A stretch of DNA of 43,109 nucleotides from a virus. The stretch lies in IMG/VR virus record IMGVR_UViG_3300005262_000003; one strand, written 5' to 3'. The notes under the pieces are model-generated. The model worked only from the letters and a program-made list of their open reading frames with translations, had not been told where the DNA came from and did not search any database. The translations under genes and the position numbers were made by a program. Position 1 is the stretch's first letter; every line of letters begins with the position of its first letter. This document shows, in pieces, positions 7,255 through 42,384 of the stretch.

Positions 7255-7255
7255 G

Positions 7256-10210: not shown

Positions 10211-10253
10211 GGCCGGGGTCTGGACCGTTGGATAGCCCGAATAAGGAATAAAC

Positions 10254-11787: not shown

Positions 11788-12245
11788 CCCACACCCACGA
11801 AGACCGCGCCGCCGAGCGCGACTCGAGCATGTGCGCCGCGTACGGTTGCCCGCTGATGGGCACGTTCACCAGCTCGACCAGCGGCGCCAACGACTGGTGC
11901 TGTTCCTTCCATGCGAACAAGGGCGGCGGCCAGCTGCAGCAGATCACGATGATCATCAACCAGTACCGCTGGCTGGCCGAGGCGATCACGATCGTTCGCG
12001 GCATGGTCCCCGGCAATCCGCACCGCGCGAAGCTGCTCGAACGGCTCTGGAACGACTTCAACGTGCACGACCGGCCCGAGCTGTACTGGAACCGCGTCGA
12101 GACCGTGCGCCAGTGGGTGAACCGCCTCGACAAGGCCCTCGACGAGCTCGTGGCGCCGCACCTGCAGAAGTCCGAGCCGCCGACCCTTGGGCAGCCTGCG
12201 GAGACGTGGAGCAGCGCTGGATCATCGCTGCCGCTCTGGGCCTGA
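11784..12245 (+). CDS. Hypothetical protein, 153 aa, with Cys/His cluster (CAAYGCP...WCCSFH)
   Basis: ORF track. ATGA overlap with the upstream gene. Confidence 0.7.
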   Translation: MTHTHEDRAAERDSSMCAAYGCPLMGTFTSSTSGANDWCCSFHANKGGGQLQQITMIINQYRWLAEAITIVRGMVPGNPHRAKLLERLWNDFNVHDRPELYWNRVETVRQWVNRLDKALDELVAPHLQKSEPPTLGQPAETWSSAGSSLPLWA

Positions 12246-12315
12246 CGAGACCATTTCGCGCGCGAGCGCACCGAGTCCCCGGGTTGCGGGGACGACAACA
12301 ACCTGAAAGGCAGAC

Positions 12316-12681
12316 ATGAATTACCCCACCGAACTGCAGCAGAAGATGGCGGCCGCATCCACGTACGGCGCCGGCTCGATCATCGGCACGGGCGCGCTCG
12401 CCCAACACGATGCCGTTGGCCAAATGCCGCAGCGCGACCGACCGCCTGTTGATGTGTCGGCACAGCGCCTGTTCGAACGCCTGGAGCAGCTGCATACCGA
12501 AGTCGCACTGCTCACCGAGCGCCTCGCGCCGGTCACTCGCCCCGAGCTGACAGGCGAGGGAAAGGCTACCGTCCGCGGCCCGACCGAATGCCAGTTGGTT
12601 GAGATGCTGGACCAGGCGGCCGAGCGCGTAGAACACGCAATCACCCGTCTGGCCAGCGCGCGCAACCGCCTCTGCATCTGA
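12316..12681 (+). CDS. Hypothetical protein, 121 aa
   Basis: ORF track. GAAAGG Shine-Dalgarno. Confidence 0.65.
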   Translation: MNYPTELQQKMAAASTYGAGSIIGTGALAQHDAVGQMPQRDRPPVDVSAQRLFERLEQLHTEVALLTERLAPVTRPELTGEGKATVRGPTECQLVEMLDQAAERVEHAITRLASARNRLCI

Positions 12682-12738
12682 CCACCACCCCGCCCGGCCG
12701 CCGGGCGGCAACAACAACGACACGGGAGAACCTGAACG

Positions 12739-13266
12739 ATGATGATCTTGGAAAGCATGAAGCACTCGCCGGTGCGCAACTACGGCGGCATCCCCGGCCT
12801 GACGAGCTGGCTCATCGGCGAGCCGAGCGCGCGCGGCCTAGTCCGCCTGCTGGAGTGCTCGCGCACGCACTTCGAACCCATCGTGCCGCACTCGCACCGC
12901 TTCGACTTCGAATGCCGGGTGCTGCGCGGGAAGGTGCGGAACATCGTCTGGGAGCCGAGCGCAGCCGGCGACGATTACGAGACGACGGAAATCACGTACG
13001 GCGGCGCGCCTGGATCGTATGGCGAACACCGCCCGACCGCGCGCTCGACGTGGGCGTTCCGCACGGAGGTCTATCGCGAAGACCAGCGCTACGCGATGGA
13101 CGCGCACGAGGTGCATTCGATCTTCTTCGAGCGCGATACTGCCGTGCTGTTCTTCGAAGGACCGCAGACCGTCAACACGTCGATCTTCCTGCAGCCGGTC
13201 GTCGACGGCCAGGTCGTGCCGACGTTCAAGGTCGAGCCGTGGATGTTCCAGCGAGGTGGCGCATGA
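12739..13266 (+). CDS. Hypothetical protein, 175 aa, with possible cupin-like HxH...E...H signature
   Basis: GGGAGAA Shine-Dalgarno. PHSHRFDFECRVLRGKV and AHEVHSIFF motifs. The fold call is tentative. Confidence 0.65.
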   Translation: MMILESMKHSPVRNYGGIPGLTSWLIGEPSARGLVRLLECSRTHFEPIVPHSHRFDFECRVLRGKVRNIVWEPSAAGDDYETTEITYGGAPGSYGEHRPTARSTWAFRTEVYREDQRYAMDAHEVHSIFFERDTAVLFFEGPQTVNTSIFLQPVVDGQVVPTFKVEPWMFQRGGA

Positions 13267-13745
13267 ACATCCTCGCCATCGACATCGGCACCCAAACCGG
13301 CTGGGCCCGCAGCTCGCGCGCCGGCACCGTCACCAGCGGCAGCGAATCGTTCGCGCCGCGCCGCATGGAAGCGGCCGGCCAGCGCTGGCTGAAGTTCCGC
13401 GCCTTCCTCAACGACCAGCGGATCGCCGGCGGCGAGATCCACGCGATCTACTACGAGGACGTGAAGCAGCACGCCGGCACGCTCGCGGCGCACGTCTACG
13501 GCGGCTTCCTCGCGTGCCTGGAGATGTGGTGCGCGGCGAACAACGTGCCGCTCAAGCCAGTGGGCGTGGGCGTCGTGAAGAAGCACTGGACCGGCAAGGG
13601 CAACGCCGACAAGGCCGTCATGTGCGAGACGGCGCGCGCACGTGGCTTCCGCCCGAAGGACAGCAACGAGGCCGACGCGCTGGCGATCCTGTCGCTGGCC
13701 CAGCACCTGGAAGGCATCACGGCACCGGTGGCGGAGGCGGCATGA
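13263..13745 (+). CDS. RuvC-like Holliday-junction resolvase
   Basis: ATGA-coupled internal start. MNILAIDIGTQTGWA (catalytic Asp), YYEDV, and DSNEADALAIL motifs. Confidence 0.85.
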   Translation: MNILAIDIGTQTGWARSSRAGTVTSGSESFAPRRMEAAGQRWLKFRAFLNDQRIAGGEIHAIYYEDVKQHAGTLAAHVYGGFLACLEMWCAANNVPLKPVGVGVVKKHWTGKGNADKAVMCETARARGFRPKDSNEADALAILSLAQHLEGITAPVAEAA

Positions 13746-13918
13746 CGCCCGAGCAAACCACCCTCGCATGCGCCGCGTGCTTCGCCGTCGGCTTCATCGG
13801 CGGGTTCGCCGGCGGCTTCCGCGTCGCGGCCATGATCATGACCGGCGTGCGCACGGTGCGCGGCGCCCGCCTGCGCGTTGTGGCGTCGGACGGCCAACTG
13901 CGAGAGGACGTGGCCTGA
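13742..13918 (+). CDS. Small membrane protein, 58 aa
   Basis: ATGA-coupled. Hydrophobic segment LACAACFAVGFIGGFAGGF. Confidence 0.5.
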   Translation: MTPEQTTLACAACFAVGFIGGFAGGFRVAAMIMTGVRTVRGARLRVVASDGQLREDVA

Positions 13919-14655
13919 TGCGATTTTTCACCGGCACCCACCAGCCGAGCGACGCGCAGCACCATGACGCGAACTTCGTCAGCGTCAACCGCCTGCGCGC
14001 GCGCCGGTCCGGCTTCGCAGTTGGCGACTGGATCATGGATTCCGGCGCGTTCACGCAGATCCTGCGCCACGGCGGCTACACCGAGGGCGTCGAGGTGTAC
14101 GCCGCCGAGATCAAACGCTGGGCGAATAACGGAAACCTGCTGGCGGCCGTCGCCCAGGACTACATGTGCGAGGCTCACATGCTGGCGATCACCGGCAAGA
14201 CCATCGAGGAACACCAGCGCCTGACCATCGAGCGCTATGACGCGCTGCAGGCCTGCGACGTCGGCGGCGTGTACATCATGCCTGTGCTGCAGGGATACGC
14301 GCCCGACGATTACGTGCGCCACATCGCGATGTATGGCGAACGCCTCGCGCACGGTATGTGGGTCGGCGTCGGCTCTGTATGCAAGCGGAACGGTGACCCG
14401 CGCGCAATCGAACGCGTGCTGTTCGCCATCAAGGAAGCTCGGCCAGACCTGCTCCTGCACGGCTTTGGCGTGAAGACGACGGCGCTGTCGTCGTCGCTGG
14501 TCACCGAGCTGCTGCACACGGCTGACTCGATGGCGTGGAGCTTCGCCGCGCGACGCGAGGGGCGAAACCCCAACGACTGGCGCGAGGCCCGCGCGTGGAC
14601 CGAACGGATCGCACGCCGGCCGATGCAATTCGGGCTGTTCGGAGGTGCACAATGA
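13918..14655 (+). CDS. dpdA: DpdA-like DNA transglycosylase (tRNA-guanine transglycosylase superfamily, minimal 245-aa form)
   Basis: MDSGAFTQ (compare TGT DSGGFQ), VGVGSVCKR, LHGFGVKT and ADSMAWSFAARREG (compare archaeal TGT FDSASY..A). No Zn or tRNA-binding domains. TGATG-coupled start. Confidence 0.7.
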   Translation: MRFFTGTHQPSDAQHHDANFVSVNRLRARRSGFAVGDWIMDSGAFTQILRHGGYTEGVEVYAAEIKRWANNGNLLAAVAQDYMCEAHMLAITGKTIEEHQRLTIERYDALQACDVGGVYIMPVLQGYAPDDYVRHIAMYGERLAHGMWVGVGSVCKRNGDPRAIERVLFAIKEARPDLLLHGFGVKTTALSSSLVTELLHTADSMAWSFAARREGRNPNDWREARAWTERIARRPMQFGLFGGAQ

Positions 14656-15029
14656 CCGAACGCCGCGACATCGGCGCGCGCCTGGAGAACTGGGCGCGCG
14701 TCTACCACGACAACCCGCGACCAGGTCTCAGCCCGACGGCCGCGTTCTGCGACCAGCTGCGCCGCGAGGCCGAAGGCGAGAAGCCCCAAGCTGAGCGCCG
14801 CAAGGTCGACGAGGCCGATGCCGCGCTGATCGAACGCGGCATGCGGGAGCTCGAGACGAAGTACCGCATGCTCCTCTGGTGGTGCTACATCAAGCAGGCT
14901 CAGCCCGAGATCGTCTGCCGCAAGATGTCCATCGCCCACCGGCCGGCGACCGTCTTCGTCAACCTGTTCCGCGACGCCCAGCGCGCGATACAATCCGTGG
15001 TCGAAAAGTACGAGGAGCGGTGGCAGTGA
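14652..15029 (+). CDS. Q-type late-gene antiterminator-like protein
   Basis: LENWARVY... then DEADAALIERGMRELETKYRMLLWWCYIKQAQPEIVCRKMSI. This follows the pattern of phage antitermination protein Q (LERWGAWA...DDDA...L..YY). Lies upstream of the late promoter. Confidence 0.6.
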   Translation: MTERRDIGARLENWARVYHDNPRPGLSPTAAFCDQLRREAEGEKPQAERRKVDEADAALIERGMRELETKYRMLLWWCYIKQAQPEIVCRKMSIAHRPATVFVNLFRDAQRAIQSVVEKYEERWQ

Positions 15030-15499
15030 GCACGGACGGAAACGAATTCAGGAAGGTCCACTGGACCGGCGACCAGTGGGAGCCGAGCGACGATGACGGC
15101 CCCGACGGCCTGCCCGTGCAGCCGCCGCGCGGGCCCGGCCTGTCTGCCGAAGACCTGGAGCTGCTGACGCTGGCCGCGCGCGCACTCGGTGCCGTGCGCA
15201 TCGAGGAAGTCGAAGGCGAAGCGTGGCTGAACCTGTACTTCGCCGATGGATCGACCGCGTGGAACTGGAACCCGCTCCTGCACAGCGACGACACGATTGA
15301 CCTGGCCGCGCGACTGTCGAAGCGTGACGGTGGCGTTGCCGTCCTTCTAAACTCTCGCTTCGACCAGACAGGCTTCGCGACGGTGTACACAGATGAGCAC
15401 CACGTGAGCAGTCAGGAATGGATGCTTGACGACCCGAAGGCGGCGATTCTCCGCGCCGTCACGCGCGCCGCTGCCGAGATTGGCAAAACCATGGCATGA
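15026..15499 (+). CDS. Hypothetical protein, 157 aa (DUF2591/ABA-sandwich-like pattern)
   Basis: GTGA-coupled GTG start. LELLTLAARALG...WNWNPLLHSDDTIDLAARL pattern. Confidence 0.6.
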   Translation: MSTDGNEFRKVHWTGDQWEPSDDDGPDGLPVQPPRGPGLSAEDLELLTLAARALGAVRIEEVEGEAWLNLYFADGSTAWNWNPLLHSDDTIDLAARLSKRDGGVAVLLNSRFDQTGFATVYTDEHHVSSQEWMLDDPKAAILRAVTRAAAEIGKTMA

Positions 15500-15509
15500 C
15501 GCCCGAGCG

Positions 15510-17168: not shown

Positions 17169-17582
17169 ATGACCGCAACCACCTACAAGCCCGCATTGGC
17201 CGCGAAGCTGTGCGCCGCGCTGGCGGCCGGCGAGAGCGGGAAAGATAGCCTCCGCTCCGTGTGCAAGTTGCCCGGCATGCCGAGCCGCGCGACGGTATAT
17301 CGCTGGCTCGAAGAGAGCGCCGAATTTCAGGCCATGTACGCCAAGGCCACCACGCAGCGTGCCGACGGCTACATCGACGAGATCGTCGAAATCGCGGACA
17401 CGGCGCCCGGCACGAAGAGCGGAATCGCAAAGGCCAAGCTGCGAATCTACGCGCGCGAGAAGTACGCGGCCAAGATCGCTCCGCGCAAGTACGGCGAGAA
17501 GATCGACGTGAACCACGGCGGCCAAGGCGATAACCCGATCAAGACCGTCACCCGCGTCGAGCTGGTGCCGCTGTCGAAATGA
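17169..17582 (+). CDS. terS: Terminase small subunit
   Basis: SVCKLPGMPSRATVYRWLEESAEFQAMYAKATTQRADGYIDEIVEIAD pattern typical of HTH-type TerS. Directly precedes terL (ATGA overlap). Confidence 0.8.
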   Translation: MTATTYKPALAAKLCAALAAGESGKDSLRSVCKLPGMPSRATVYRWLEESAEFQAMYAKATTQRADGYIDEIVEIADTAPGTKSGIAKAKLRIYAREKYAAKIAPRKYGEKIDVNHGGQGDNPIKTVTRVELVPLSK

Positions 17583-18910
17583 CGACCGCACAGATCGCCA
17601 TACCGGAGAAACTGATCCCGGTGTTCCAGGGCGAGGCCGACGTACGCGGCTCCTACGGTGGCCGCGGCTCTGGCAAGACCCGCACGTTCGCGAAGATGAT
17701 CGCCCTGCGCGGCTACATCTACGGCATGGCCGGCGTCACCGGCCAGCTGCTGTGCGCGCGCCAATTCATGAACTCCCTCGCCGACTCGAGCCTGGAGGAG
17801 TGCAAACGCGCGATCGAGGAGGAGCCGTTCCTGGCTGCCTACTACGAGATCGGCGACAAGTTCATCCGGTCCCGAGACGGCAACGTGTGGTTCGCCTTCG
17901 CCGGCCTGGACCGCAACATCTCCAGCATCAAGTCGAAGGGTCGCATCCTCATCTGCTGGGTCGACGAGGCCGAGCCGGTGACGGACGAGGCGTTCACCAC
18001 GCTGATCCCGACGCTGCGCGAGGAAGGCGACGACTGGAACGCGGAGCTGTGGGTCACATGGAACCCGAAGCGCAAGGCGGCCGCCGTCGAGAAGCGGTTC
18101 CGCAACACCGACGACCCGCGCATCAAGGTCGCCGAGCTCAACTGGCGCGACAACGAGAAGTTCCCTGCCAAGCTGGAACGCGAACGCCAGCGTGACCTGC
18201 GCGACCGCCCTGACCAGTACGACCACATCTGGGAAGGCGGCTACGCGACCGTCATCGAGGGCGCCTATTACGCCGCGAGCCTGACCGCCGCGAAGGCGCA
18301 GGGGCGCATCTGCCGCGTGGCGGCCGACCCGCTGATGACGCTGCGCGTGTTCGTCGACATCGGCGGCACCGGCGCTCGTGCGGACGCCTTCACGATGTGG
18401 GTCTCGCAGTTCATCGGCAAGGAAATCCGCGTGCTGGACTACTACGAGGCCGTCGGCCAGCCGCTGGGCACGCACCTGGAGTGGATGCGCGAGCGCGGCT
18501 ATAGCCCGAGGCGTGCACAAATCTGGCTGCCGCACGACGGATCGACGCAGGACAAGGTGTTCGACGTGTCCTACGAGTCAGCGCTAGAGGGCGCTGGCTA
18601 CACGGTCACCGTCGTGCCTAACCAGGGCAAGGGCGCAGCCAAGGCGCGCATCGAGGCCGCACGCCGGCTGTTCCCGTCCATGTGGTTCAACGCCGAGACG
18701 ACCGAGGCCGGCCGCGAAGCGCTGGGCTTCTACCACGAAAAACGTGACGAGGTGCGCGGCATCGGACTGGGTCCGGAACACGACTGGTCCAGCCACGGCT
18801 CTGACTCGTTCGGCCTGATGTGCGTGGCCTACGAAGAGCCGCAGGCCTGGGGCGACGACGAAGAAGAGGATCCGGACTACACCGGAAGATCAACGATTGG
18901 CGGCTACTGA
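17579..18910 (+). CDS. terL: Terminase large subunit
   Basis: Walker A GGRGSGKT. ILICWVDEAE Walker B-like. C-terminal nuclease-type region. 443 aa. Confidence 0.9.
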   Translation: MTTAQIAIPEKLIPVFQGEADVRGSYGGRGSGKTRTFAKMIALRGYIYGMAGVTGQLLCARQFMNSLADSSLEECKRAIEEEPFLAAYYEIGDKFIRSRDGNVWFAFAGLDRNISSIKSKGRILICWVDEAEPVTDEAFTTLIPTLREEGDDWNAELWVTWNPKRKAAAVEKRFRNTDDPRIKVAELNWRDNEKFPAKLERERQRDLRDRPDQYDHIWEGGYATVIEGAYYAASLTAAKAQGRICRVAADPLMTLRVFVDIGGTGARADAFTMWVSQFIGKEIRVLDYYEAVGQPLGTHLEWMRERGYSPRRAQIWLPHDGSTQDKVFDVSYESALEGAGYTVTVVPNQGKGAAKARIEAARRLFPSMWFNAETTEAGREALGFYHEKRDEVRGIGLGPEHDWSSHGSDSFGLMCVAYEEPQAWGDDEEEDPDYTGRSTIGGY

Positions 18911-21054
18911 TGGCATACGAAACTTTCAACATCGACGACGAACAGGGCGGCGACGCGCCGGCTGCGAAGCAGCATCCGGCCGAACTGCTGCGGTCCTTCA
19001 TCGGCCAGCCGAACATCGTGTCGCTGCTGCCGCCGGAAGTGGTCAGCAAGATCGGCATGGAGGTCACGCGCGGCTACGACGCCGACGACAGCAGCCGCGC
19101 TGATTGGTCGCGCATGATGAAGACGGCCATGGACTTGGCCATGCAGGTGACGCAGGAAAAGAGTTGGCCGTGGCCGAAGGCGGCGAACGTCAAGTATCCG
19201 CTGATCACCACGGCCGCAATTCAGTTCAGCGCGCGCGCCTACCCCGCCATCGTGCAGGGTGAGCAGGTCGTGAAGGGCATGGTAATGGGCCCCGATCCGG
19301 ACGGCGAGAAAAAGAAGCGCGCCGACCGCATCGGCCACCACATGTCCTACCAGCTGCTCGAACAGATCGAGGACTGGGACGAGGACACCGACAAGCTGCT
19401 GCTGCAGATGGCGATTGTCGGCTGCGCGTTTCGCAAGACCTACTTCGACACGACGCTCGGCCGCCCGCGCAGCGAGATGGTCCCGGCGAAGTACGTGGTC
19501 TACGACCATGCCACTCCCTTCAAGGACCTGCGCCGCATCAGCCAGTGGCTGCCGCTCTACAAGAACGACGTCATAGAACGCGTGCGCGGCGACGTCTTCG
19601 TCGATGTGCAGCTGGGCACGCCGGTCGGCGCGACGAACGACGAGGACGCCCCGCACGAGTTCATCGAGCAGCACTGCTGGTACGACCTAGACGACGACGG
19701 CTACAAGGAACCCTATATCGTCACGGTCGTGAAGGAGACGTCCGAGGTGGCGCGCATCGTCGCCCGCTTCGACGAAGACGGCATCTACCTGAACAGCAAG
19801 GGCGAGGTCGCGAAGATCGAGCCCGTCAGCTACTGGACGAAGTACCCCTTCATGCCGAACCCGGACGGCGGCTCGTACGACGTCGGCCTCGGCCTGCTGC
19901 TGAACCCGATCAACGAAACGATCAACACGGTGCTCAACCAGCTGCTGGACGCCGGCACGCTGGCCAACACGGGTGGCGGCTTCATCGGTACCGGCCTCGG
20001 CCTGAAGTCCGGCAAGGCGTCCTTTACGCCAGGCGAGTTCAAACCCGTCGATAGCAAGGCCGGCAAGATCGCGGACAGCATCTACCACATGCAGTTCCCA
20101 GGGCCCAGCCCCGTGCTGTTCCAGCTGCTGGGCATGCTGATCGAGGCCGGCAAGGACATCTCGTCGGTGAAGGACATCTTGACCGGCGAGCAGCAGGTCA
20201 ACCAGACCGCGACCACCACGTTGGCGCTGATCGAACAGGGCCTGAAGGCGTTCACCGCGATCTACAAGCGCGTGCACCGGTCGCTGAAGAAGGAATTCGC
20301 GAAGCTGTTCCGCCTGAACCGCCTGTACCTGCAGCCCGAGGACTACTACCGCTTCCAGGACAAGTCGGAGCCGATCTACCTGCAGGACTACCAGGGCGAC
20401 GGCACGGACGTGGCGCCCGTCAGCGATCCGAATCTCGTGTCGGACGCCCAGGAGCTGGCGCGCGCCGACGCGCTGATGCAGTTCAAGGGCGATCCCTTCA
20501 TCAACCAGGTGGAGCTGCGGCGCCGCTTCCTGAAGGCGATGAAAGACCCGAATCCGGATGCCCTGCTCGTCACCGACCCGCCGGCGCCGCCTCAGGACCC
20601 GAAAGTCATGGAGGTCCAGGGCAAGCTCGCCGCGATGGAAGTCGAGGTGAACGCCAAAGCCGAAAAGATGATGGCCGAGATCGAGAACCTGCAGGCGCGC
20701 AATGCCGAGCTGGAGGCCTCCGCCGCACTGAAGATGGCGCAGGCGCAGGCGATCGGCGGCGAACAACAATTCGCGGTCCTCATGGCCCAGGTCCAGCACA
20801 TGCTGGACAGCCATCTGGAGCGCACCAAGGCAGCTTTACAACCGCAACAACCACAGGGAGGAATGAACGATGGCAGCAGCACCGGGAATGAGCAAGGAGG
20901 AATACCAGCAGTGGAAGGACCACCCGCTGACGCAGCGGTTCCACCAGTACCTGAAGGATTACCGCCAGGCGCTGATGGAGAAATGGGCACAGGGGGCGCT
21001 GGCGCCGACCAGCCCGGAAGCGCTGATGGCGGTGGCGCGCTGCCAAATGGCTGA
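18910..21054 (+). CDS. Portal protein
   Basis: 714 aa from ATG 18910 (TGATG-coupled to terL). Assigned by size and position. The last ~60 codons are low-complexity with poor GC3. Confidence 0.8.
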   Translation: MAYETFNIDDEQGGDAPAAKQHPAELLRSFIGQPNIVSLLPPEVVSKIGMEVTRGYDADDSSRADWSRMMKTAMDLAMQVTQEKSWPWPKAANVKYPLITTAAIQFSARAYPAIVQGEQVVKGMVMGPDPDGEKKKRADRIGHHMSYQLLEQIEDWDEDTDKLLLQMAIVGCAFRKTYFDTTLGRPRSEMVPAKYVVYDHATPFKDLRRISQWLPLYKNDVIERVRGDVFVDVQLGTPVGATNDEDAPHEFIEQHCWYDLDDDGYKEPYIVTVVKETSEVARIVARFDEDGIYLNSKGEVAKIEPVSYWTKYPFMPNPDGGSYDVGLGLLLNPINETINTVLNQLLDAGTLANTGGGFIGTGLGLKSGKASFTPGEFKPVDSKAGKIADSIYHMQFPGPSPVLFQLLGMLIEAGKDISSVKDILTGEQQVNQTATTTLALIEQGLKAFTAIYKRVHRSLKKEFAKLFRLNRLYLQPEDYYRFQDKSEPIYLQDYQGDGTDVAPVSDPNLVSDAQELARADALMQFKGDPFINQVELRRRFLKAMKDPNPDALLVTDPPAPPQDPKVMEVQGKLAAMEVEVNAKAEKMMAEIENLQARNAELEASAALKMAQAQAIGGEQQFAVLMAQVQHMLDSHLERTKAALQPQQPQGGMNDGSSTGNEQGGIPAVEGPPADAAVPPVPEGLPPGADGEMGTGGAGADQPGSADGGGALPNG

Positions 21055-21118: not shown

Positions 21119-21339
21119 TGTACCAACAGATCAAGCAGCTGGCCGACGACGCGCTGGCACTGCAGAATAAAAACCGCATGGATGCGGCGCTGCGCGAAAT
21201 CAGCGCTCTGTGCGACCACGCGGCCGCCGCGCAGCCGGAACAACCGGAACCGGCCGAGCCGGCCGAGCCGGCCGTGCTGCCGCCGGCGGGCGACTTCGGT
21301 GACGCCGGCGACGCGGTCCAGGAAGGCGGTGCGCAATGA
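21118..21339 (+). CDS. Hypothetical protein, 73 aa, with PEQPEPAEPAEPA repeat
   Basis: TGATG-coupled. ORF track. Confidence 0.55.
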   Translation: MYQQIKQLADDALALQNKNRMDAALREISALCDHAAAAQPEQPEPAEPAEPAVLPPAGDFGDAGDAVQEGGAQ

Positions 21340-21692
21340 ACGCCGCCGTCAACCAGTCCGGGATCCAGCCCGTCGAATACAAAATCCTGATCCTGCCCGA
21401 GCAGGCCGAGGAAACCGACGAGACCCTGAAGCGCGCCAAGGCTGCCGGCCTCGTGCTGGTCGACAAGACCACCGAGCGCGAAAAGATGGCCCAGGTGAAG
21501 GGCCGACTCGTCGCCGCCGGCGGCAACGCCTTCGAGGACTGGTCCGGCCAAGTGCCGCAGCTCGGCGACGTCGTCTGGTTCGCGAAGTACGCCGGCTACG
21601 TCGTCAAGGGCGACGACGGCCAGGAATACCGCCTGGCCAACGACAAGGACATCAGCGCGGTGCTGCTGCCCCGCTCCACTCCCACCGAATAA
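21336..21692 (+). CDS. GroES/Cpn10-like co-chaperonin
   Basis: IQPVEYKILILPEQ...AAGLVLV...VKGRLVAAGGN...LGDVVWFAKYAGYVV...EYRLANDKDISAVL follows the GroES pattern (P..drvLV, AGGIVL, VvAvG, GD.V.f.ky.G, DIlAvl). Confidence 0.65.
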   Translation: MNAAVNQSGIQPVEYKILILPEQAEETDETLKRAKAAGLVLVDKTTEREKMAQVKGRLVAAGGNAFEDWSGQVPQLGDVVWFAKYAGYVVKGDDGQEYRLANDKDISAVLLPRSTPTE

Positions 21693-24631: not shown

Positions 24632-24657
24632 TCGCCGGAGGCAGCCGCAACACCTGG

Positions 24658-24686
24658 CGCCCTCGCATGTCGGGGGCGTTCTTTTT
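24658..24686 (+). terminator. Intrinsic terminator after the capsid gene
   Basis: 8-bp stem cgccctcg / cgggggcg (one G-U pair), 5-nt loop, then ttcttttt. Confidence 0.65.
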
Positions 24687-24708: not shown

Positions 24709-25419
24709 ATGCCCTCCCCTTCCCGCTTTACCAACGGTATCGCCACGGTGCCGAAGGCTGCGCCGCTCGGCAACTTCGGTTTGCCCGACCCGACCGAATG
24801 GCACACCTATTTCGATGACTTCGACAGCTACATCGCCGCGGCCTGGGCCGTGACCGCAGTCGGTACCGGTACGGCCGCGCTGGCCAACCTCGACGGCGGC
24901 GTGCTGGTGCTGACCAACTCGGCCGCCGACAACGACAGCATCCAACTGCAGAAGGTGGGCGAATCCTTCCTGCTGACGGCAGGCAAGCGCGCCTTCTTCA
25001 AGGCTCGCTTCAAGGTATCGGACGCGACGCAATCCGACCTGGTCATCGGCCTGTGCGTGACCGACACGACCCTGATGGGCGCGACGGCTGGCGCCGGCGT
25101 GACGGACGGCGTGTTCTTCAGCAAGGACGACGGCGTGGCCACCCTGGACGTGCAGTGCCAGAAAAATGCTACGACCGGCCAGACCCGCGCCGCGGCGATC
25201 GCGACGCTCGCGAACGACACCTTCGTCACCGTGGCCTGGGCCTATGACGGCAAGGGCGAGATCGCCTACTTCGTCAACGACCAGCAGCTCGGCACGCTGA
25301 ACGCCAGCGCGGCCTACCTGCCCGACACCACCCTGACCGCGTCGTTCGGGATCATGAACGGCGAGGCGCTCGCCAAGTCCATGACCGTCGACTACATGTT
25401 CGCGTCCGCCGAGCGCTGA
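24709..25419 (+). CDS. Virion protein, 236 aa, predicted beta-sandwich/jelly-roll (head fibre or decoration?)
   Basis: AGGAG Shine-Dalgarno. FDDFDSY...W...GGVLVLTNSAADNDSIQL pattern seen in ConA/LamG-like phage proteins. Confidence 0.55.
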   Translation: MPSPSRFTNGIATVPKAAPLGNFGLPDPTEWHTYFDDFDSYIAAAWAVTAVGTGTAALANLDGGVLVLTNSAADNDSIQLQKVGESFLLTAGKRAFFKARFKVSDATQSDLVIGLCVTDTTLMGATAGAGVTDGVFFSKDDGVATLDVQCQKNATTGQTRAAAIATLANDTFVTVAWAYDGKGEIAYFVNDQQLGTLNASAAYLPDTTLTASFGIMNGEALAKSMTVDYMFASAER

Positions 25420-25457
25420 TCAATCGGGGCTTCGGCCCCTTCCACCTGGAGGCCATC

Positions 25458-25838
25458 ATGGCAGACGCAGTAACCAGCCAGATTCTCGTGGACGGCGAAC
25501 GCAACGCGGTCATGAAGTTCACGAACATTTCCGACGGCACCGGCGAGACGGCCGTGCTGAAGGTCGACGTCTCGACGCTGGCCGGCGCGCCGAGCTCGGT
25601 CAAGATCACCCACATCGAGTACGACATCTTCGGCATGCAGGTCGCAATCCTGTGGGACGCGACCACCGACGTGCCGGCAATCGTCTTGAGCCAGGGCCAG
25701 CAGCGTTTCGACTTCACGAGCGTCGGCGGCCTCATCAACAACGGCGGCGCGGGCGTGAACGGCGACATCCTGTTCACCACCATCGGCGCGAGCGCGAACG
25801 ACTCCTACTCGATCGTGCTGCACATGAAGAAGAGCTGA
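25458..25838 (+). CDS. Virion-module protein, 126 aa
   Basis: GGAGG Shine-Dalgarno. ORF track. Confidence 0.65.
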   Translation: MADAVTSQILVDGERNAVMKFTNISDGTGETAVLKVDVSTLAGAPSSVKITHIEYDIFGMQVAILWDATTDVPAIVLSQGQQRFDFTSVGGLINNGGAGVNGDILFTTIGASANDSYSIVLHMKKS

Positions 25839-25840: not shown

Positions 25841-26086
25841 ATGGCGGGCGACACGTTCATCCTGGGCGACTCGAACGCCATCTGCGACTGCTGCGGGTTC
25901 CAGTTCAAGCTGTCCCAGCTGCGCAAGCGCTGGGACGGTGCGATGGTGTGTTCGAAGGACTGGGAGCCGCGGCACCCGCAGGACTTCGTGAAGGCCCGCC
26001 CGGAGCGCAACCACGTCAAGAATGCCCGGCCAGGCGCTGAGCCGCGCTTCGTCGGGCCCAACGAGATCACGGCGGACGACCTATGA
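25841..26086 (+). CDS. Small Cys-containing protein, 81 aa (CDCCG...VCSKDWEPRHPQD)
   Basis: Internal ATG 25841, 2 nt after the upstream stop. Confidence 0.6.
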   Translation: MAGDTFILGDSNAICDCCGFQFKLSQLRKRWDGAMVCSKDWEPRHPQDFVKARPERNHVKNARPGAEPRFVGPNEITADDL

Positions 26087-26514
26087 CCATCATTGCATGG
26101 GACGGCAAGACCCTGGCCGCCGACAAGCGAGGCACCGTAGCCGGCATGGGTTACGCCGTGACAAAAATCCACAGATTGCCCGATGGCCTGGTCGCATTCT
26201 CTGGCGGCGGTGCGCATGCTGCAGAACTGCTGAACTGGTTCCATGGCTCTCGAAACCCTGATACGTATCCCCGCCGCGACGATGACAGTGGGGCCGGTGC
26301 GTTGCACATCGACGCACAGGGACGCGTTTTCATGTACAGCGCGGCGAATCCTTTCCCGGAGCGCATCGAGAGTCCGTACTTCGCGCGGGGCTCTGGACGC
26401 GATTACGCCATGGCGGCGATGCACTTGGGCTGCGACGCTCGCCGCGCTGTAGAAGTCGCCTGTGCTTTCGATATCGGCTGCGGGCACGGCATCGATACTT
26501 TGGAGCTGAAATGA
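26083..26514 (+). CDS. HslV/proteasome-beta-like Ntn-hydrolase (threonine peptidase)
   Basis: MTIIAWDGKTLAADKRGT (Thr2 nucleophile position), TKIHRL, VAFSGGGAHAA and ARGSGRDYAMAAM. These line up with HslV TTIVSV..GDGQ, KKVRRL, AGFAGGTADAF and GSGG.YA.AAA. Confidence 0.7.
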   Translation: MTIIAWDGKTLAADKRGTVAGMGYAVTKIHRLPDGLVAFSGGGAHAAELLNWFHGSRNPDTYPRRDDDSGAGALHIDAQGRVFMYSAANPFPERIESPYFARGSGRDYAMAAMHLGCDARRAVEVACAFDIGCGHGIDTLELK

Positions 26515-27449
26515 CCACGAGCGGAACGAACACCTTCAGCCTCTCGCGCGACGACATCATCGCGGCGGCCGCGCTGGAAAACGGCGACATCGCCCTGGGC
26601 GACACGCTGGACGCGGACACGCTGGCCCAGTACGCACTGCGGCTGAACTCCTGGGTGAAGGCCCTGATGGCCGATGGCGCGAAGCTGTGGGCGATGCAGC
26701 TGGCCACCCTCTTCCTGCAGCCGGGCGTCTGCCGTTACGTGCTGGGCACCGGTGGCACGCACTGCACCGTCAGCTACGTGCGCACGACCCTGTCCAGCAA
26801 CGCGGCGGCCGGCGCTGTCGCTGTGCAGCTCGCCAGCTTCACGGGCATGACCGCGGGCGACAACATCGGCGTGCTACTGGCCGACGGCTCGCTGTTCTGG
26901 ACGACGATCAATGGCGCGCCGGGCGCGTCGACGACGCTCACCACGGCGCTGCCGGGCGCGGCCGTCGCGGGCGCCCAGGTCTTCACGTACACCACGAAGA
27001 TCACCCGCCCGCAGCGCATCGATCCGGACGGCGCCTACTGGCGCTCCTCCGCACTGCAGGACACCCCGGTCGCGATGATCTCGCGCACCGCATACGCCCA
27101 GCAGGCCAACAAGGGCGCGCGCGGCAAGATCGTCCAGGCCTTCTACGACCCGCAGCTCGGCAACGGCGTGCTGTCGGTCTGGCCAGCGCCGGACAACGCC
27201 GCCGACGTGCTGTGCTTCTGGTACGAGCGCCGCATCGAAGACTTCAACACCGGCAGCGACACCCCCGACTTCGCCATCGAGTGGGGCGAGGCACTGATTC
27301 TCGGCCTGGCTCACCGCATGGCGCCGACGGCCGGCCTGCCGCTGACCGAACGTCAGGACTTGGAGCGCCGCGCAGCGCTGGCGCTGGACAAGGCGGAGGG
27401 CTACGACCGCGAGAACACGGGCGTGTTCTTCCAGCCGGACGTGCAATGA
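26511..27449 (+). CDS. Virion structural protein, 312 aa (possible head-to-tail adaptor)
   Basis: ATGA-coupled. Position is between the head genes and the ejection proteins. The function is a guess. Confidence 0.5.
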   Translation: MTTSGTNTFSLSRDDIIAAAALENGDIALGDTLDADTLAQYALRLNSWVKALMADGAKLWAMQLATLFLQPGVCRYVLGTGGTHCTVSYVRTTLSSNAAAGAVAVQLASFTGMTAGDNIGVLLADGSLFWTTINGAPGASTTLTTALPGAAVAGAQVFTYTTKITRPQRIDPDGAYWRSSALQDTPVAMISRTAYAQQANKGARGKIVQAFYDPQLGNGVLSVWPAPDNAADVLCFWYERRIEDFNTGSDTPDFAIEWGEALILGLAHRMAPTAGLPLTERQDLERRAALALDKAEGYDRENTGVFFQPDVQ

Positions 27450-27853
27450 GGCTGAACCTTCTTGACGTGGTCGACCCGTGGACCGTACAGGCCCCCTGGA
27501 TGACGCCACAGGAGATCGTCGCGAACCTAGATGCTCAAGTCGACGCCGGCGTGGCCCAGTACTTCTGGTCCTGCGACGGGCAGACGTGCTGGTTCGTTCG
27601 GCGCTGCACCAACCGTGTGGCCGATGTCCACCTTTTCAGCCGCTCGTCCGCGCTCGTCGCGAACTCGCGCGAGATCCAAGCACGCGTATGGGATGAGACG
27701 GGATACGCGCGGCTGGAGATGCGGACCCACGTGCGCGGCGTCTGGGCGCTGGCGCGTCGCTTGGGCTGGCGACACGAAGGCATATGCAAAGCGTCGATCG
27801 AACTGCAGGACGGCTCGGTCGTTGACGAACACACATACGGAATACTGAGATGA
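27446..27853 (+). CDS. Small protein, 135 aa, with GNAT-like C-terminal half
   Basis: ATGA-coupled internal start. YARLEMRTHVRGVWALARRLGWRHEGICKASIELQDGSVVDEHTYGILR resembles the RimJ/RimL-type GNAT C-terminus. No clear acetyl-CoA motif. Confidence 0.45.
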   Translation: MRLNLLDVVDPWTVQAPWMTPQEIVANLDAQVDAGVAQYFWSCDGQTCWFVRRCTNRVADVHLFSRSSALVANSREIQARVWDETGYARLEMRTHVRGVWALARRLGWRHEGICKASIELQDGSVVDEHTYGILR

Positions 27854-31589: not shown

Positions 31590-32450
31590 ACGCCAACCCT
31601 GGACGGCACTGAAAATCACGACGAGCACGAGGAGCGCCCCGGCTTTCCACAGTTTGAAGGTGATGTAGTCGCTCAATTTATGCCCTGGATTGGATATGTG
31701 CCCAGTTTTTCCCATTCAGGATTGAGCTAATTGCGCTATTAGTGACGCCAAATTCGCGCGCCAGCTTGGTCGCGATTCCATATTTTTTCGGCTGACTTTT
31801 TATATATCGAACCTGCTCTTCGGTTAGCTTCGCGCAACCGTTTTGAGGCCCACGCTGAGCTGTCGGCTTCCAACCGAGAGCCTTAATCGCATGCTGAGCA
31901 TTGCCGGCATATGTTGTGATTTCAAGATTGGTCACCGCATTGTTCTTGGGGTTTCCATCCAAATGGTTAATACACAGGCCAGCCGGTATCGGGCCAATAA
32001 ACGTCTGCGCGATCAGTCTGTGCACCAAATGCCTGTGCGACTTTCCATCTTTGCGGAGCTGCACCATGAAGTAGCCGGTCGTTAGCAGAGATCCTTGAAT
32101 AAAACGATGTGCAGGGTCATTGGCCCAGTTAAGTCCTTTGAAAATCATGGCAATGTTTCTCTTACTAACTCCGAATTGGTTTGCAATTTTTTGATGAGAC
32201 AAACCTTTTTCACGTAAGGCCACGATGTTTGGAATATCCGCTGCGCAAAGCTTTTTCCCTCGCTCTAATCTACGAATCCTGCCCTGATTACTGGCTTCGT
32301 AGATCCCCTCAAAACCTGCAATCGGCTTCCAGTCTTCAACCATGAGAATCCCTTTTGTTGGAGGAGCCTATCTTTCTAGGTCCCTCAATTTTAGCGCGTC
32401 GCGGTGTATCAATCTATATCCGGTTCTTGATGAATCAGGAGGCAATGCCA
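31590..32450. mobile_element. Homing-endonuclease insertion with flanking low-G+C tract
   Basis: The compositional dip extends about 110 nt into the 5' end of the downstream hub gene. My hand count is 45 G+C in nt 32342-32441. Confidence 0.6.
31678..32343 (-). CDS. Free-standing HNH homing endonuclease (NUMOD4-like N-terminus, HNH core, C-terminal HTH modules)
   Basis: WKPIAGFEGIYEASNQGRIRRL; HRLIAQTFIGPIPAGLCINHLDGNPKNNAVTNLE; IATKLAREFGVTNSAISSILNGKNW. Opposite strand inside the structural operon. Low G+C. Confidence 0.9.
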   Translation of the reverse strand: MVEDWKPIAGFEGIYEASNQGRIRRLERGKKLCAADIPNIVALREKGLSHQKIANQFGVSKRNIAMIFKGLNWANDPAHRFIQGSLLTTGYFMVQLRKDGKSHRHLVHRLIAQTFIGPIPAGLCINHLDGNPKNNAVTNLEITTYAGNAQHAIKALGWKPTAQRGPQNGCAKLTEEQVRYIKSQPKKYGIATKLAREFGVTNSAISSILNGKNWAHIQSRA

Positions 32451-38390: not shown

Positions 38391-38533
38391 TGGACTTCCA
38401 CGTCATCACGCCGACCGAGCAGCAGCTCGTCATGCGGACGACGGAAGGCGGGTACGTGCACCAGGTGTGGCCGGCGCCTCCGTCGTCGCTCCCGGCCGAC
38501 GCCGCGCCGGCTCAGCCAGCACCCGGCAGATGA
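38390..38533 (+). CDS. Mini-ORF, 47 aa, coupled to the holin
   Basis: TGATG overlap. Hand translation MDFHVITPTEQQLVMRTTEGGYVHQVWPAPPSSLPADAAPAQPAPGR. Very high GC3. No TM or lipobox. Confidence 0.45.
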   Translation: MDFHVITPTEQQLVMRTTEGGYVHQVWPAPPSSLPADAAPAQPAPGR

Positions 38534-38648
38534 GCGCGAAGCCCGCGCCGTGGTCGGCCAGGTAGGCGGCCGCGGCGCGCACGTCGCCCATGGTCAGCGC
38601 GTGGTCGACTGCGGCGGCAAGTTCGGTGTTCGGGCGGCTCAGTTCCAT
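38430..38648 (-). CDS. Hypothetical small protein, 72 aa (80 aa from GTG 38672)
   Basis: MELSRPNTELAAAVDHALTMGDVRAAAAYLADHGAGFALICRVL... Divergent from 38737-39033 across the LexA box. The 3' third overlaps the 47-aa ORF convergently. Confidence 0.45.
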   Translation of the reverse strand: MELSRPNTELAAAVDHALTMGDVRAAAAYLADHGAGFALICRVLAEPARRRPGATTEAPATPGARTRLPSSA

Positions 38649-38702
38649 GCGCCGATCATACGGTAGGCGCACCGCCGGCAGGTTGCGGCTGGTCAGCCGT
38701 TA

Positions 38703-38722
38703 TACTGTACGCTCATACAGTA
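38703..38722. promoter_or_regulatory. LexA (SOS) box
   Basis: TACTGTACGCTCATACAGTA fits CTGT-N8-ACAG, with perfect 8-bp arms ATACTGTA / TACAGTAT (38702-38709, 38716-38723). Confidence 0.75.
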
Positions 38723-38736
38723 TTTTCAACATCAGC

Positions 38737-39033
38737 ATGTACGGAAAAGTGAAGCGCCTGCGCGACCATGGGCGGCGCCTGTCGAACCGCGAGATCAACC
38801 AGATGCCAGCCGTCGAAGGCGCGCTCACGCTCGCCGCAGTGCGGTCAACCTACGTCCTTCAGGTCCGGCGGCACGATTCCCAGGTCGGGCCAGGGTTGCT
38901 GCCGGACCTCTACGAAGCCCGCCTCATCGCCATGCATACGGGCGGAATGCTATTCAGGGGCGAGGAGCGGCCGCAGGGCGACGACGGCCCGGCGTACGTG
39001 CAGGAGTGGTCGGTGATGATCGAGCCAATGTAA
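38737..39033 (+). CDS. Hypothetical protein, 98 aa, downstream of the LexA box
   Basis: Internal ATG of ORF 38590-39033, 14 nt after the box. About 85% G/C at third positions by hand count. No recognisable Shine-Dalgarno. Confidence 0.55.
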   Translation: MYGKVKRLRDHGRRLSNREINQMPAVEGALTLAAVRSTYVLQVRRHDSQVGPGLLPDLYEARLIAMHTGGMLFRGEERPQGDDGPAYVQEWSVMIEPM

Positions 39034-39176
39034 AATCGCGTACCGGGCGACGGCCCTATTTCTTTGGAAGATGCCCGTAAGGGCCAAGCATTCATGCGGG
39101 TTTCAGCGGCGTCGATCTTCCAAAGAATTCATCCGCACCTTTAGGAAAATCAATTACTTAGATGCTTTTGGGCATC

Positions 39177-39224
39177 GGATTGTGATTCCTGTTGTCGTGG
39201 GTTCGAGTCCCATCAGCCACCCCA
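39177..39224 (+). other. attP core: 3' portion of a tRNA-His gene (anticodon loop through CCA), not an intact tRNA
   Basis: GGATTGTGATTCCTGTTGTCGTGGGTTCGAGTCCCATCAGCCACCCCA matches the tRNA-His 3' half (GTG anticodon, C73 discriminator, CCA). No complementary 5' acceptor strand (GTGGCTG) lies upstream. Confidence 0.8.
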
Positions 39225-39243
39225 AGAATTCAGCAATAAGATC

Positions 39244-39284
39244 AAAGGGTTACGAGCTTCGCGCCGTAGCCCTTTAATTTTTTT
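39244..39284 (+). terminator. Intrinsic terminator downstream of the tRNA fragment
   Basis: 11-bp stem aaagggttacg / cgtagcccttt (one G-U pair), 10-nt loop, then aattttttt. Confidence 0.65.
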
Positions 39285-39318
39285 GGAAGATGAAATTCCA
39301 AATTTTGGAAGATCATTG

Positions 39319-40419
39319 TTACGCGGTCGCCTTGGCCGTCTTCTTCTTCCGCCTGTCGTACACCTGCCGCACCATGCGATCCGTGCTGTGTCCGGTAGCG
39401 TTCGTGATGTCTTTATCCCCCTCTTCTACCCGGTCCGTGACAGCCGCCGGCCGCATGTCCTTCAACGTGAACCGCGCGAACTCGATCCCTTCTTTTTCCG
39501 CCTTCTTCCGCGCGTGCTCCATCAACCGGCGCAGGTTCGTGTTCCAGCCGCTGGTCGTGTAGGGTTGCCCCTCACTGTTGCCGAAAACATACATGCTGGT
39601 CGTGCGCTGCAGGGACAGTGCCTCGCTCATGACCGCGCGCAGCTCGTCCGACCACTCGATCACCTTGAACTTTTGCACACTTCCCTTCTTCCGCTTGCCG
39701 ACCGGCATTTCGACCCCCTGCTCCGTGATCGCCTGGCGCGTGATTTTCCGCATCTCGTCCGGACGGCTCACCGTCAGGTAGGCCGCGCGCAAGCACAGCG
39801 CCGCCACCACGTACATCCCGCCGCGCTCCCGCGCCACGCGCACGACCAGGTCGAGCTCGGTCGACGTCACATAGCGGGTGTCCGGCGTCGTCTTGTTGTA
39901 CTTGATGTCGCGGCAGGGGTTCGTCTCCAGCACACCCTTACGGCGGCCGAACTCCAGCACAGCCGACAGCAGCGCGATTTCCTTGTTCGCCTTCGCCGGC
40001 GCGCCTTCAGCGGCCCGGCCGTCCAGATACTTATAGATGTGCACCGGCTTGATGACCGCCGGCTTCACCTTGCCGAATGTCTTCAGCAGGCGCTTTGCCT
40101 CGTTGTGCTCGTTCTCGTCCAGGGTGCTGTCGGCCTTGCGTTCCTCGCTGTCGCGCGGCAAGGCGCGCTGCCACGCGAAGTAGCGGCGGAACAGCGCATC
40201 GGTCTCGCCGGTCTCCACCTGGACGCCGTTCAGCTCGTTGGCGCGCTCGATCGCCTCGGTGCGGATCCGCGCGCACGCTTCCTTGTCGCTGGTGGCGGCC
40301 GTCAAGCGGAACGCCCACTTCCCGTCCGGCAGCTTGTAGCCGTAGCTCACCTTGAACTTACCGAGGCGCTCGTACAGGCGGAACGGCATGCCGTCCGGTG
40401 ATTTTCTTCTTCCGATCAT
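39319..40419 (-). CDS. int: Tyrosine integrase
   Basis: 366 aa. C-terminal ATGHSTDRMVRQVYDRR (H-x-x-R ... Y). Adjacent to attP and xis. Confidence 0.9.
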   Translation of the reverse strand: MIGRRKSPDGMPFRLYERLGKFKVSYGYKLPDGKWAFRLTAATSDKEACARIRTEAIERANELNGVQVETGETDALFRRYFAWQRALPRDSEERKADSTLDENEHNEAKRLLKTFGKVKPAVIKPVHIYKYLDGRAAEGAPAKANKEIALLSAVLEFGRRKGVLETNPCRDIKYNKTTPDTRYVTSTELDLVVRVARERGGMYVVAALCLRAAYLTVSRPDEMRKITRQAITEQGVEMPVGKRKKGSVQKFKVIEWSDELRAVMSEALSLQRTTSMYVFGNSEGQPYTTSGWNTNLRRLMEHARKKAEKEGIEFARFTLKDMRPAAVTDRVEEGDKDITNATGHSTDRMVRQVYDRRKKKTAKATA

Positions 40420-40652
40420 TGCGAAAACATACTGAAGTCAGGTTCGGCGTCGGCGACTGGTGCCGGGCCTGGGGCGGCGGCGCCGCTCAGCCGGGCGTCA
40501 TGATACGCGCGGCTCACGCGCGGGAATCCGCGAAGGTTCGGTTCGAACGGCCACCCGTGCCGGTCCAGGTAGCGGCGCATGCACGCGAAGCTGGTGGGCG
40601 CGCAGCCGATCAGCTCGGCCAGCTCGTCGGCGGTGAGGTAATTGGTCGGCAT
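40416..40652 (-). CDS. xis: Excisionase / AlpA-like HTH protein
   Basis: Internal ATG 40652 with a GGAG Shine-Dalgarno. MPTNYLTADELAELIGCAPTSFACMRRYLDRHGWPF. ATGA overlap with int. Confidence 0.7.
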   Translation of the reverse strand: MPTNYLTADELAELIGCAPTSFACMRRYLDRHGWPFEPNLRGFPRVSRAYHDARLSGAAAPGPAPVADAEPDFSMFSQ

Positions 40653-40654
40653 GG

Positions 40655-40834
40655 TTACTCCAGTCCCGCGTCCGGAAGCACCCGGCGCTCGCCGTACACC
40701 TGCTCGCCACGCGTCGGCGCCGGTCTGGCCGGAACCGTCCCACGCCGTTCGAACTGCGGGCGGCGTCGGTCGTTCACCGGGCTGGTGAAGTACGACGACA
40801 CGCCGCGGCGGCGGTCCTTTCCTCGTTCGATCAT
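40655..40834 (-). CDS. Mini-ORF, 59 aa, Arg-rich
   Basis: ATGA-coupled to the upstream ASCH gene. Ends 2 nt before the xis start. Confidence 0.4.
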   Translation of the reverse strand: MIERGKDRRRGVSSYFTSPVNDRRRPQFERRGTVPARPAPTRGEQVYGERRVLPDAGLE

Positions 40835-42031: not shown

Positions 42032-42139
42032 GTCGTCCTTTCAAAAAGTGCCAGACTTGGCACCGCGTGTATCAAATTTGCGTAATGACAACGTTTTTCG
42101 TTCCGTGTACAGTGCGGGTTTTCCAGAGAGGAGAGGCAG

Positions 42140-42379: not shown

Positions 42380-42384
42380 AAAGC

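Follow-up and report, generated by a model that had tools for sequence, protein, structure and literature searches.

A predicted N-terminal-threonine hydrolase of the PPH family is an accessory one-gene cassette in the late operon of a podovirus-like phage

The IMG/VR virus record IMGVR_UViG_3300005262_000003, a stretch of 43,109 nucleotides that is called the window in the following, carries among its late structural genes a small gene whose 143-residue product is related to HslV and to the beta subunits of the proteasome. We find that the protein is a member of the already described PPH family, i.e. it is not HslV proper, and that its gene is a precise one-gene cassette, an accessory element that is absent from near-identical phages. 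A first-pass annotation of the window, made from the letters alone, had described the product as an HslV/proteasome-beta-like threonine protease; its kinship with this group is confirmed by profile and fold comparisons, and it is the name HslV that has to be replaced by PPH. The reading we favour, to which we assign a probability of about 70%, is that PPH is an optional, mobile, late-expressed threonine hydrolase that would work independently of HslU and would bring a conditional benefit, with no step in virion assembly.

The 143-aa open reading frame (ORF) is real, its translation is the one quoted in the first-pass annotation, and the features on which the analysis is based are the following.

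26083..26514, + strand: PPH ORF, 143 aa, proteasome/HslV-like (ORF list, phrog_1040, AlphaFold2, Foldseek)
26086..26088, + strand: codon of Thr2, the predicted catalytic nucleophile (Thr1 after loss of Met1); Thr or Ser in 149/149 diverse relatives
26122..26124, + strand: codon of Asp14, counterpart of proteasome Asp17; present in 30/30 close and 149/149 diverse relatives
26164..26166, + strand: codon of Lys28, counterpart of proteasome Lys33; present in 30/30 close and 149/149 diverse relatives
26203..26205, + strand: codon of Gly41, counterpart of the oxyanion-hole Gly47; present in 30/30 close and 148/149 diverse relatives
26089..26516, + strand: 428-bp one-gene indel (DNA alignment with PPH-less relatives; presence and absence by tblastn)
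26083-26089 and 26511-26517, + strand: direct repeat ATGACC(A) bounding the indel (DNA alignment)
25841..26086, + strand: 81-aa Cys-rich protein upstream of PPH, its stop overlapping the PPH start; 75-99% identity in 13 relatives
26511..27449, + strand: 312-aa head-to-tail adaptor-like protein downstream of PPH, its start overlapping the PPH stop; kept in relatives

The ATGA coupling that had been pointed out on both sides of the gene is present: the PPH start codon shares ATGA (26083-26086) with the stop of the preceding 81-aa ORF, and the PPH stop shares ATGA (26511-26514) with the ATG of the following 312-aa ORF. The GC content at third codon positions (GC3) is 0.69 in PPH versus 0.93 in both neighbours.

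The accessory status of the gene follows from a comparison with sister phages. Eighteen IMG/VR loci with a relative of the adaptor were fetched and the proteins of the window were mapped onto them by tblastn; 13 of these were counted, as they span the 81-aa/adaptor junction and plainly share the module. In the 13 relatives the major capsid protein (MCP) is 90-99%, the 81-aa protein 75-99% and the adaptor 75-96% identical to the proteins of the window. PPH is carried by two of them only (L093 and L094), and the remaining 11 have the 81-aa gene immediately next to the adaptor gene. The MCPs of L089 and L090 are 99% identical to that of the window, yet both loci are without PPH. In the DNA alignment these two, together with L095 and L102, read ...CTATGACC followed at once by ACGAGC..., with nothing in between. 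As 11 of 13 relatives with the same module have no PPH, the gene is dispensable for building the virion of the window phage. The genes kept across the relatives are those for the GroES-like protein, the scaffold, the MCP, the 81-aa protein, the adaptor and the first ejection protein, while PPH, the HNH gene and the ORFs of 236, 126 and 135 aa vary. Since the 236-aa, 126-aa and 135-aa ORFs come and go among near-identical relatives, the stretch from the MCP to the ejection proteins is a mosaic hot spot.

The relationship to the proteasome family is seen in family profiles and in the predicted fold. The PHROG hidden Markov model (HMM) phrog_1040, named 'peptidase HslV family', matches residues 1-143 of PPH with an E value of 5.2e-32 (112.5 bits). 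The single PPH sequence scores 15.8 bits against the Pfam Proteasome family PF00227, under the gathering cutoff of 22.4; among the NCBIfam models there is no HslV match, the sole match being an archaeal beta-subunit model at 13 bits with a cutoff of 224; and a single-sequence phmmer search against the PDB gave nothing relevant, with one spurious response-regulator match. The search against Proteasome profiles that the first-pass annotation had proposed as a check is therefore negative at the Pfam cutoff, and the assignment is carried entirely by PHROG, the family profile and the structure. In the PDB, a profile built from 30 relatives picks up the Betaproteobacteria proteasome homolog (BPH) 5ovs with an E value of 1e-5, and also 20S subunits and several HslV chains. 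The AlphaFold2 model, built on the alignment of the same 30 relatives, has a mean pLDDT of 95.8 and bears out the structural expectation of the first reading, i.e. a fold of the HslV, BPH and 20S beta type. Its top Foldseek matches are BPH 5ovt, the HslV structures 3ty6, 1m4y, 1g3i, 1e94 and 4g4e and 20S beta subunits, all with probability 1.0 and E values of about 1e-7 to 1e-8; the TM scores to HslV are 0.66-0.78 when normalised to the PPH query. A search of BFVD also brings up phage Ntn-hydrolase and proteasome-like proteins. The helices predicted in the model are H1 (43-54), H3 (106-114) and H4 (119-129), residues 55-70 are modelled as a loop and helix H2 is lacking. The H2 segment is also missing in the profile alignment of the PPH family to HslV.

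The conservation of residues was followed in a close set of 30 PPH relatives (55-85% identity) and in a diverse set of 149 representatives of 50%-identity clusters. The latter were drawn from an exhaustive search in which 433 representatives passed E<=1e-30 and 4386 passed E<=1e-10. Thr2, Asp14, Lys28 and Gly41, the counterparts of Thr1, Asp17, Lys33 and Gly47 of the proteasome family (PMC8665760), are invariant in all 30 close relatives. In the diverse set 136 of the 149 proteins have Thr and 13 have Ser at position 2, Asp14 and Lys28 are found in every one and Gly41 in 148. The HslV hallmark motifs noticed in the first reading reflect true homology. The Ser of the GSG(R) motif is the one hallmark among them that varies: it is S in 113/149 and otherwise C, A, H or T. 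The median length of the 149 representatives is 148 aa, and 145 of them start with MT or MS, so that there is no propeptide; removal of Met from an MT start was demonstrated by mass spectrometry for the related BPH (PMC5777263). Two further residues, Trp52 and Pro63, are invariant in a family-specific manner among the 149 representatives and sit where H2 would be. Taken together, the residue conservation and the predicted structure support the view that PPH is a catalytically intact HslV/proteasome-beta-like N-terminal-threonine hydrolase.

The assignment to PPH was made by the described features of the family (size, fold, catalytic set, H2, propeptide and phage origin). The family was described as proteins of about 140 residues that belong to group I together with HslV and BPH and have neither H2 nor a propeptide; they were found in Caudovirales and prophages, and their flanking genes were reported merely as phage-derived (PMC8665760). 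The protein of the window agrees with this description in its length of 143 aa, in its MT start without a propeptide and in having the equivalents of Thr1, Asp17, Lys33 and Gly47 on a proteasome-like beta-sheet core. According to the model it keeps H1, H3 and H4 and is without H2; its nearest relatives are BPH and HslV, and it is likewise carried by tailed phages and prophages of Proteobacteria. No feature of the window protein argues against membership. The preference for the portal/neck region, the one-gene indel and the accessory status, which we report here, are additions to the description and not contradictions of it. The gene had been called unusual for its position, a view we do not share: PPH, or PHROG 1040, is already described and is annotated in more than 100 phage records, and the portal/neck region is the commonest location in its clade. 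In GenBank/RefSeq 114 phage genomes carry a homolog, all of them less than 36% identical to PPH of the window and often labelled 'peptidase HslV family'. A literature search found no experimental work and no reported function for phage HslV-like or PPH proteins. Two candidates that came up, gp116 of Erwinia phage RAY and g89 of Citromicrobium phage RXM, were set aside as different proteasome-like proteins for which no mechanism is reported.

It is instructive to compare PPH with the better known systems. HslV (ClpQ) has the same Ntn-hydrolase alpha-beta-beta-alpha fold and the same catalytic residues, and its Thr is exposed by removal of Met1, as predicted for PPH. However, HslV is longer (about 175 aa versus 143 aa), it is a gene of a heat-shock operon whereas PPH is a mobile phage gene, and PPH stays under the Pfam cutoff and without an NCBIfam HslV match. 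No hslU adjoins PPH or was found elsewhere among the scanned ORFs of the window. The elements of HslV that form the pocket for the HslU tail or take part in activation lie on H1 and H2 and comprise Phe54, Phe57, Ala79/Lys80, Arg86/Arg89/Lys90 and Gln114 (PMC6429459, PMC5777263). Since the H2 segment is missing both in the PPH model and in the profile alignment, the H2 residues of HslV cannot exist in PPH, which would thus lack part of the HslU-tail pocket and the Arg86/Arg89/Lys90 cluster. BPH, the best PDB match of PPH by profile and by fold, has no propeptide and no partner unfoldase, and an epoxomicin adduct established its classical Thr1 mechanism (Fuchs et al. 2018, PMC5777263). Some members of the BPH family use a Ser nucleophile, as do 13 of the 149 PPH representatives. 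Unlike PPH, BPH is about 200 aa long, has H2 and a long acidic pore loop, forms tetradecamers and is encoded by a chromosomal, constitutively expressed and stress-linked gene. The prohead proteases of the HK97 gp4, ClpP/S49 and T4 gp21 types share with PPH the location in the late head operon, and in some contigs PPH takes the slot after the portal gene. Prohead proteases are serine proteases of the herpesvirus-assemblin or ClpP type, however, and are unrelated to PPH in fold and chemistry. They are also conserved core genes, whereas PPH is present or absent among near-identical phages. PPH gave no match to the S49/ClpP, U35/S78 and U9/S77 families; only Proteasome and phrog_1040 were matched.

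The genomic surroundings of the clade were surveyed in IMG/VR. The scan gave 401 relatives, of which the best 80, together with the window and three earlier loci, were reduced to 71 non-redundant loci; neighbours were called from the stop and start positions near the PPH ends and a frame score, so that their starts may be over-extended. The immediate upstream neighbours fall into 33 homology clusters, and no neighbour gene is conserved across the 71 contexts. The most frequent upstream neighbour is a DnaT_2 gene (21/71 loci; neck region, flanked by MCP and tail terminator), followed by the myovirus neck protein phrog_14539 (10/71, between MCP and sheath) and by a P22-type portal (5/71, in the order portal, PPH, a 329-aa protein and P22 coat). 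The SU10-type adaptor and the 81-aa gene of the window type are upstream in three loci each and a T7-type portal in two. In total PPH is located at the portal/neck boundary in 44 of the 71 loci, covering all three tail types. About eight loci have an upstream gene of the nin-region or replication type (RusA, YbcO, RecA-dependent nuclease, methyltransferase, Cro, Exc), and about 17 contexts are unclassified, many of their neighbours, including 125-aa and 216-aa downstream proteins, being without a Pfam family. A 4-nt overlap between PPH and the upstream gene is found in 45/71 loci and one with the downstream gene in 31/65. The GC3 of PPH is below that of the flanks in 58/71 loci (median -0.068, Wilcoxon p 5e-8). 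The portal/neck bias of the clade appears not to have been reported before.

Individual copies illustrate how diverse the contexts are. In a podovirus that has a P22-type portal and an MCP of the Phage_capsid_3 family, a copy 83% identical to that of the window comes after an SU10-type adaptor. In a siphovirus the copy with 77% identity has a DnaT_2-family gene on one side and the genes for head closure and tail terminator on the other, a slot also taken by a 63% identical copy in a prophage. In a P22-like prophage, rusA and the small terminase gene flank a copy of 59% identity. Distant homologs have other surroundings: phiSD1 carries one upstream of its holin genes, Sinorhizobium phage phiM5 one between TerL and portal, an rV5-like phage one amid metabolic genes, and in Xp10 the homolog is 50L of the early leftward operon. 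In Xanthomonas phage Xp10 (L008, 3724-5188) 50L is flanked by the HNH genes 49L and, two genes away, 52L, which hints at homing-endonuclease-associated mobility of the PPH homolog in this lineage. In Klebsiella phage IME346 (Jedunavirus, L107, 4720-5843) the homolog belongs to a moron-like, three-gene island on the opposite strand inside the tail genes. The bacterial carriers of the clade are mostly Burkholderiales (Massilia with 78% and Janthinobacterium with 61% identity, also Duganella, Herbaspirillum and Variovorax), and this predominance suggests that Burkholderiales are the likely host group.

We favour the following scenario. The gene moves by horizontal transfer among tailed phages that are otherwise unrelated and infect Burkholderiales or other Proteobacteria, with the portal/neck boundary of late operons as its preferred landing site. 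Its mobility is seen in the close copies in unrelated backbones, in the 33 clusters of upstream neighbours and in its lowered GC3. The protein would be made late, together with the structural proteins, at the lower level expected for genes 3' of the hairpin that follows the MCP gene. Met1 would be removed by the methionine aminopeptidase of the host, exposing Thr1 as the nucleophile, and PPH would then act in the cytoplasm of the infected cell as a stand-alone peptidase without HslU. Its substrates could be host or phage proteins, and the conditional fitness benefit might lie in proteostasis, i.e. protein turnover during the mass production of virion proteins, or in the removal of a host factor. 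A proteostasis role is a reasonable guess because the conserved GroES-like gene belongs to the same operon; removal of a host factor is equally possible. Co-expression with the late genes is supported by the 4-nt overlaps on both sides and by the lack of an own promoter or terminator, no promoter- or terminator-like site having been found adjoining PPH. The proposed independence of HslU follows from the missing H2, the region that supplies Ala79/Lys80 and Arg86/Arg89/Lys90 in HslV; there Ala79/Lys80 lie in the HslU-tail pocket and the arginine and lysine cluster responds to HslU (PMC6429459, PMC5777263). BPH, the nearest relative with a solved structure, likewise works with no unfoldase (PMC5777263). 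A moron expressed during lysogeny was considered and set aside as the principal explanation, PPH having no promoter, terminator or intergenic space of its own.

Several points weigh against this scenario. The function of PPH is one that we infer, and the argument on HslU has as its basis a monomer prediction together with published lists of residues. The neighbour survey uses crude ORF calling and the best 80 of 401 IMG/VR loci. The dispensability of PPH in the relatives is compatible with an accessory role in association with the virion, and the bias of 44/71 loci towards portal and neck might stem from a true connection with the neck or with ejection proteins rather than from a permissive insertion site. 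It is possible, if unlikely, that the placement next to portal, adaptor and neck genes in operons of podo-, sipho- and myoviruses is a functional link in this sense: PPH would then be a late unfoldase-independent protease or a connectase-like site-specific enzyme that trims or removes a neck-associated, portal-associated or ejection protein, or that destroys a host immune sensor of late structural proteins. If true, PPH would stand for a widespread, so far unrecognised class of phage accessory or counter-defence proteases.

Other roles can be conceived in which PPH serves the virion itself. The idea of a maturation protease, put forward in the first-pass annotation, would have PPH take over the work of the missing prohead protease of conventional type and cut scaffold, capsid or ejection proteins during assembly. 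Its location, translationally coupled in a late structural operon, would suit this role, as would its position between portal and scaffold, the classical slot, in some P22-like contigs. It is also correct, as had been noted, that the head module contains no recognisable prohead protease of the S49, ClpP, U35 or U9 type, but such a lack is normal for scaffold-using P22-like podoviruses, and P22-type phages assemble without proteolysis. Eleven of the 13 relatives, whose MCP is 90-99% identical and which share scaffold, 81-aa gene and adaptor with the window, are without PPH; the clade is associated with no fewer than four capsid types that are unrelated to one another (P22 coat, Phage_capsid_3, Gp13-like and Mu gpT-like), and distant members reside in early or nin-type regions. 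Because of the presence/absence pattern and the variety of capsid types we regard this reading as effectively excluded. The same annotation had suggested an injected effector, i.e. a PPH that is loaded with the ejection proteins and delivered to the next host cell. The gene adjoins the adaptor and lies 1.3 kb upstream of three P22-like ejection-protein genes, and the clade as a whole prefers portal/neck neighbourhoods, yet nothing was found that speaks directly for injection: neither a packaging signal nor a conserved partner is evident, and other members occur in early operons (Xp10 50L) or among metabolic genes (the rV5-like phage). The particle proteome of phiM5 comprises 16 proteins, three internal virion proteins among them, and its PPH-like peptidase is not on the list; this is weak evidence, taken from the 'detected in phage particle proteome' notes of the GenBank record and concerning a homolog of 35% identity. 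Overall we consider injection very unlikely.

Two further alternatives concern the way in which the enzyme would work. PPH might dock on host HslU and either redirect degradation or block the host HslVU, in line with the earlier suggestion that it uses the host ATPase. HslV is one of the structures nearest to PPH (query-normalised TM of up to 0.78), and the proteobacterial hosts of the clade generally possess HslVU. The expectation that no HslU-like ATPase is encoded was correct: the Pfam scan found no AAA+ or HslU-like family in the scanned ORFs of the window, and no AAA+ partner was seen among the neighbours in the related loci examined. The predicted absence of H2 (AlphaFold2 model; PMC8665760) stands against docking, as the pocket and activation cluster includes the H2 residues Ala79/Lys80 and Arg86/Arg89/Lys90; the NCBIfam HslV model is unmatched; and for BPH, the best sequence match, the residues of the HslU interface are lacking and a pull-down of HslU was negative (PMC5777263). 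We consider the use of host HslU quite unlikely. Equally improbable in our view is a connectase-like enzyme, i.e. a sequence-specific processing enzyme or ligase that acts on one defined phage or host protein. Connectase is a monomeric, highly specific transpeptidase with the proteasome fold that lacks flanking helices (PMC8665760, PMC7980362), and it is in keeping with such a specialisation that PPH is without H2 and has its own invariant Trp52 and Pro63 at that place. On the other hand, the S3/S4 insertion that confers specificity on connectase, and which is listed for connectase, PMI-5 and PMI-6 only (PMC8665760), is absent from the PPH model, whereas H3 and H4, the helices of ring-to-ring contacts, are kept in it, which would be compatible with ring assembly. 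There is also no conserved neighbour that could be a candidate substrate.

The main features of the late operon around PPH are given below in their order.

17579-18910: TerL
about 18910-21054: portal
21336-21692, + strand: Cpn10/GroES-like co-chaperonin between portal and scaffold (Pfam Cpn10, 33 bits; phrog_3188)
between the GroES-like gene and the MCP gene: scaffold candidate, 300 aa
23720-24631: MCP
3' of the MCP gene, in this order: variable small genes, 81-aa gene, PPH, SU10-type adaptor-like gene
after the adaptor gene, in this order: three P22-like ejection proteins, Hc3 head-closure protein, tailspike-size protein, lysozyme

The Pfam scan also detected a small terminase of the Sf6 type in the window. 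The adaptor-like 312-aa protein scores 22.5 bits against Pfam SU10_adaptor, under the cutoff of 27, and matches phrog_12985. The GroES-like gene is 80-97% identical in every relative in which the region is covered, and unlike PPH it has the appearance of a core gene in the head module of this phage group. The nearest terminator-like hairpin lies at 24656-24680 (+), right after the MCP gene, with 10 pairs, 7 of them G-C, and a T-rich tail; it may be an attenuator that lowers the expression of the neck, PPH and ejection genes relative to the MCP. The 81-aa protein (CDCCG...C) matched no Pfam family and is found directly before the adaptor in all relatives, down to 35-50% identity; we speculate that it may be an uncharacterised zinc-binding neck or assembly factor. 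An HNH/NUMOD4 homing-endonuclease gene at 31678-32343 (-) forms an insertion after the last of the ejection-protein genes and before that for the Hc3 head-closure protein, in a patch of low GC (about 0.58 versus 0.65). It has no close copy in the relatives examined, the single match being 28% identical and confined to one locus. The 236-aa, 126-aa and 135-aa ORFs (24709-25838 and 27446-27853, +) matched nothing in Pfam, PHROG or PADLOC, and PADLOC had no match for PPH or for its variable neighbours. When the structural module was compared with INPHARED by megablast, no close relative among cultured phages came up, the only match being a terminase fragment.

Outside the structural genes, a pooled Pfam scan of the non-structural ORFs (1-15500 and 38500-43109), which gave families for the region as a whole without placing them on individual ORFs, detected an integrase, an S24 repressor, RecT, YqaJ, DpdA, DUF5131 and DUF1376. 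DpdA is a family of 7-deazapurine DNA modification, and a stretch of low GC (about 0.50) lies at 8000-9000. From the integrase, the S24 repressor, DpdA and the other families we conclude that the window is a temperate podovirus-like genome that may modify its DNA.

PPH of the window is thus a real but ordinary addition to a known and annotated family, and the more exciting readings, a maturation protease or an injected effector, lack support from the evidence. The analysis adds a regularity to the family description: most clade members are tied into late operons through 4-nt overlaps, at the boundary of portal and neck and in phages of any tail type. Near-identical phages with and without PPH, which differ by a 428-bp one-gene indel, amount to a clean natural experiment on what the gene contributes.

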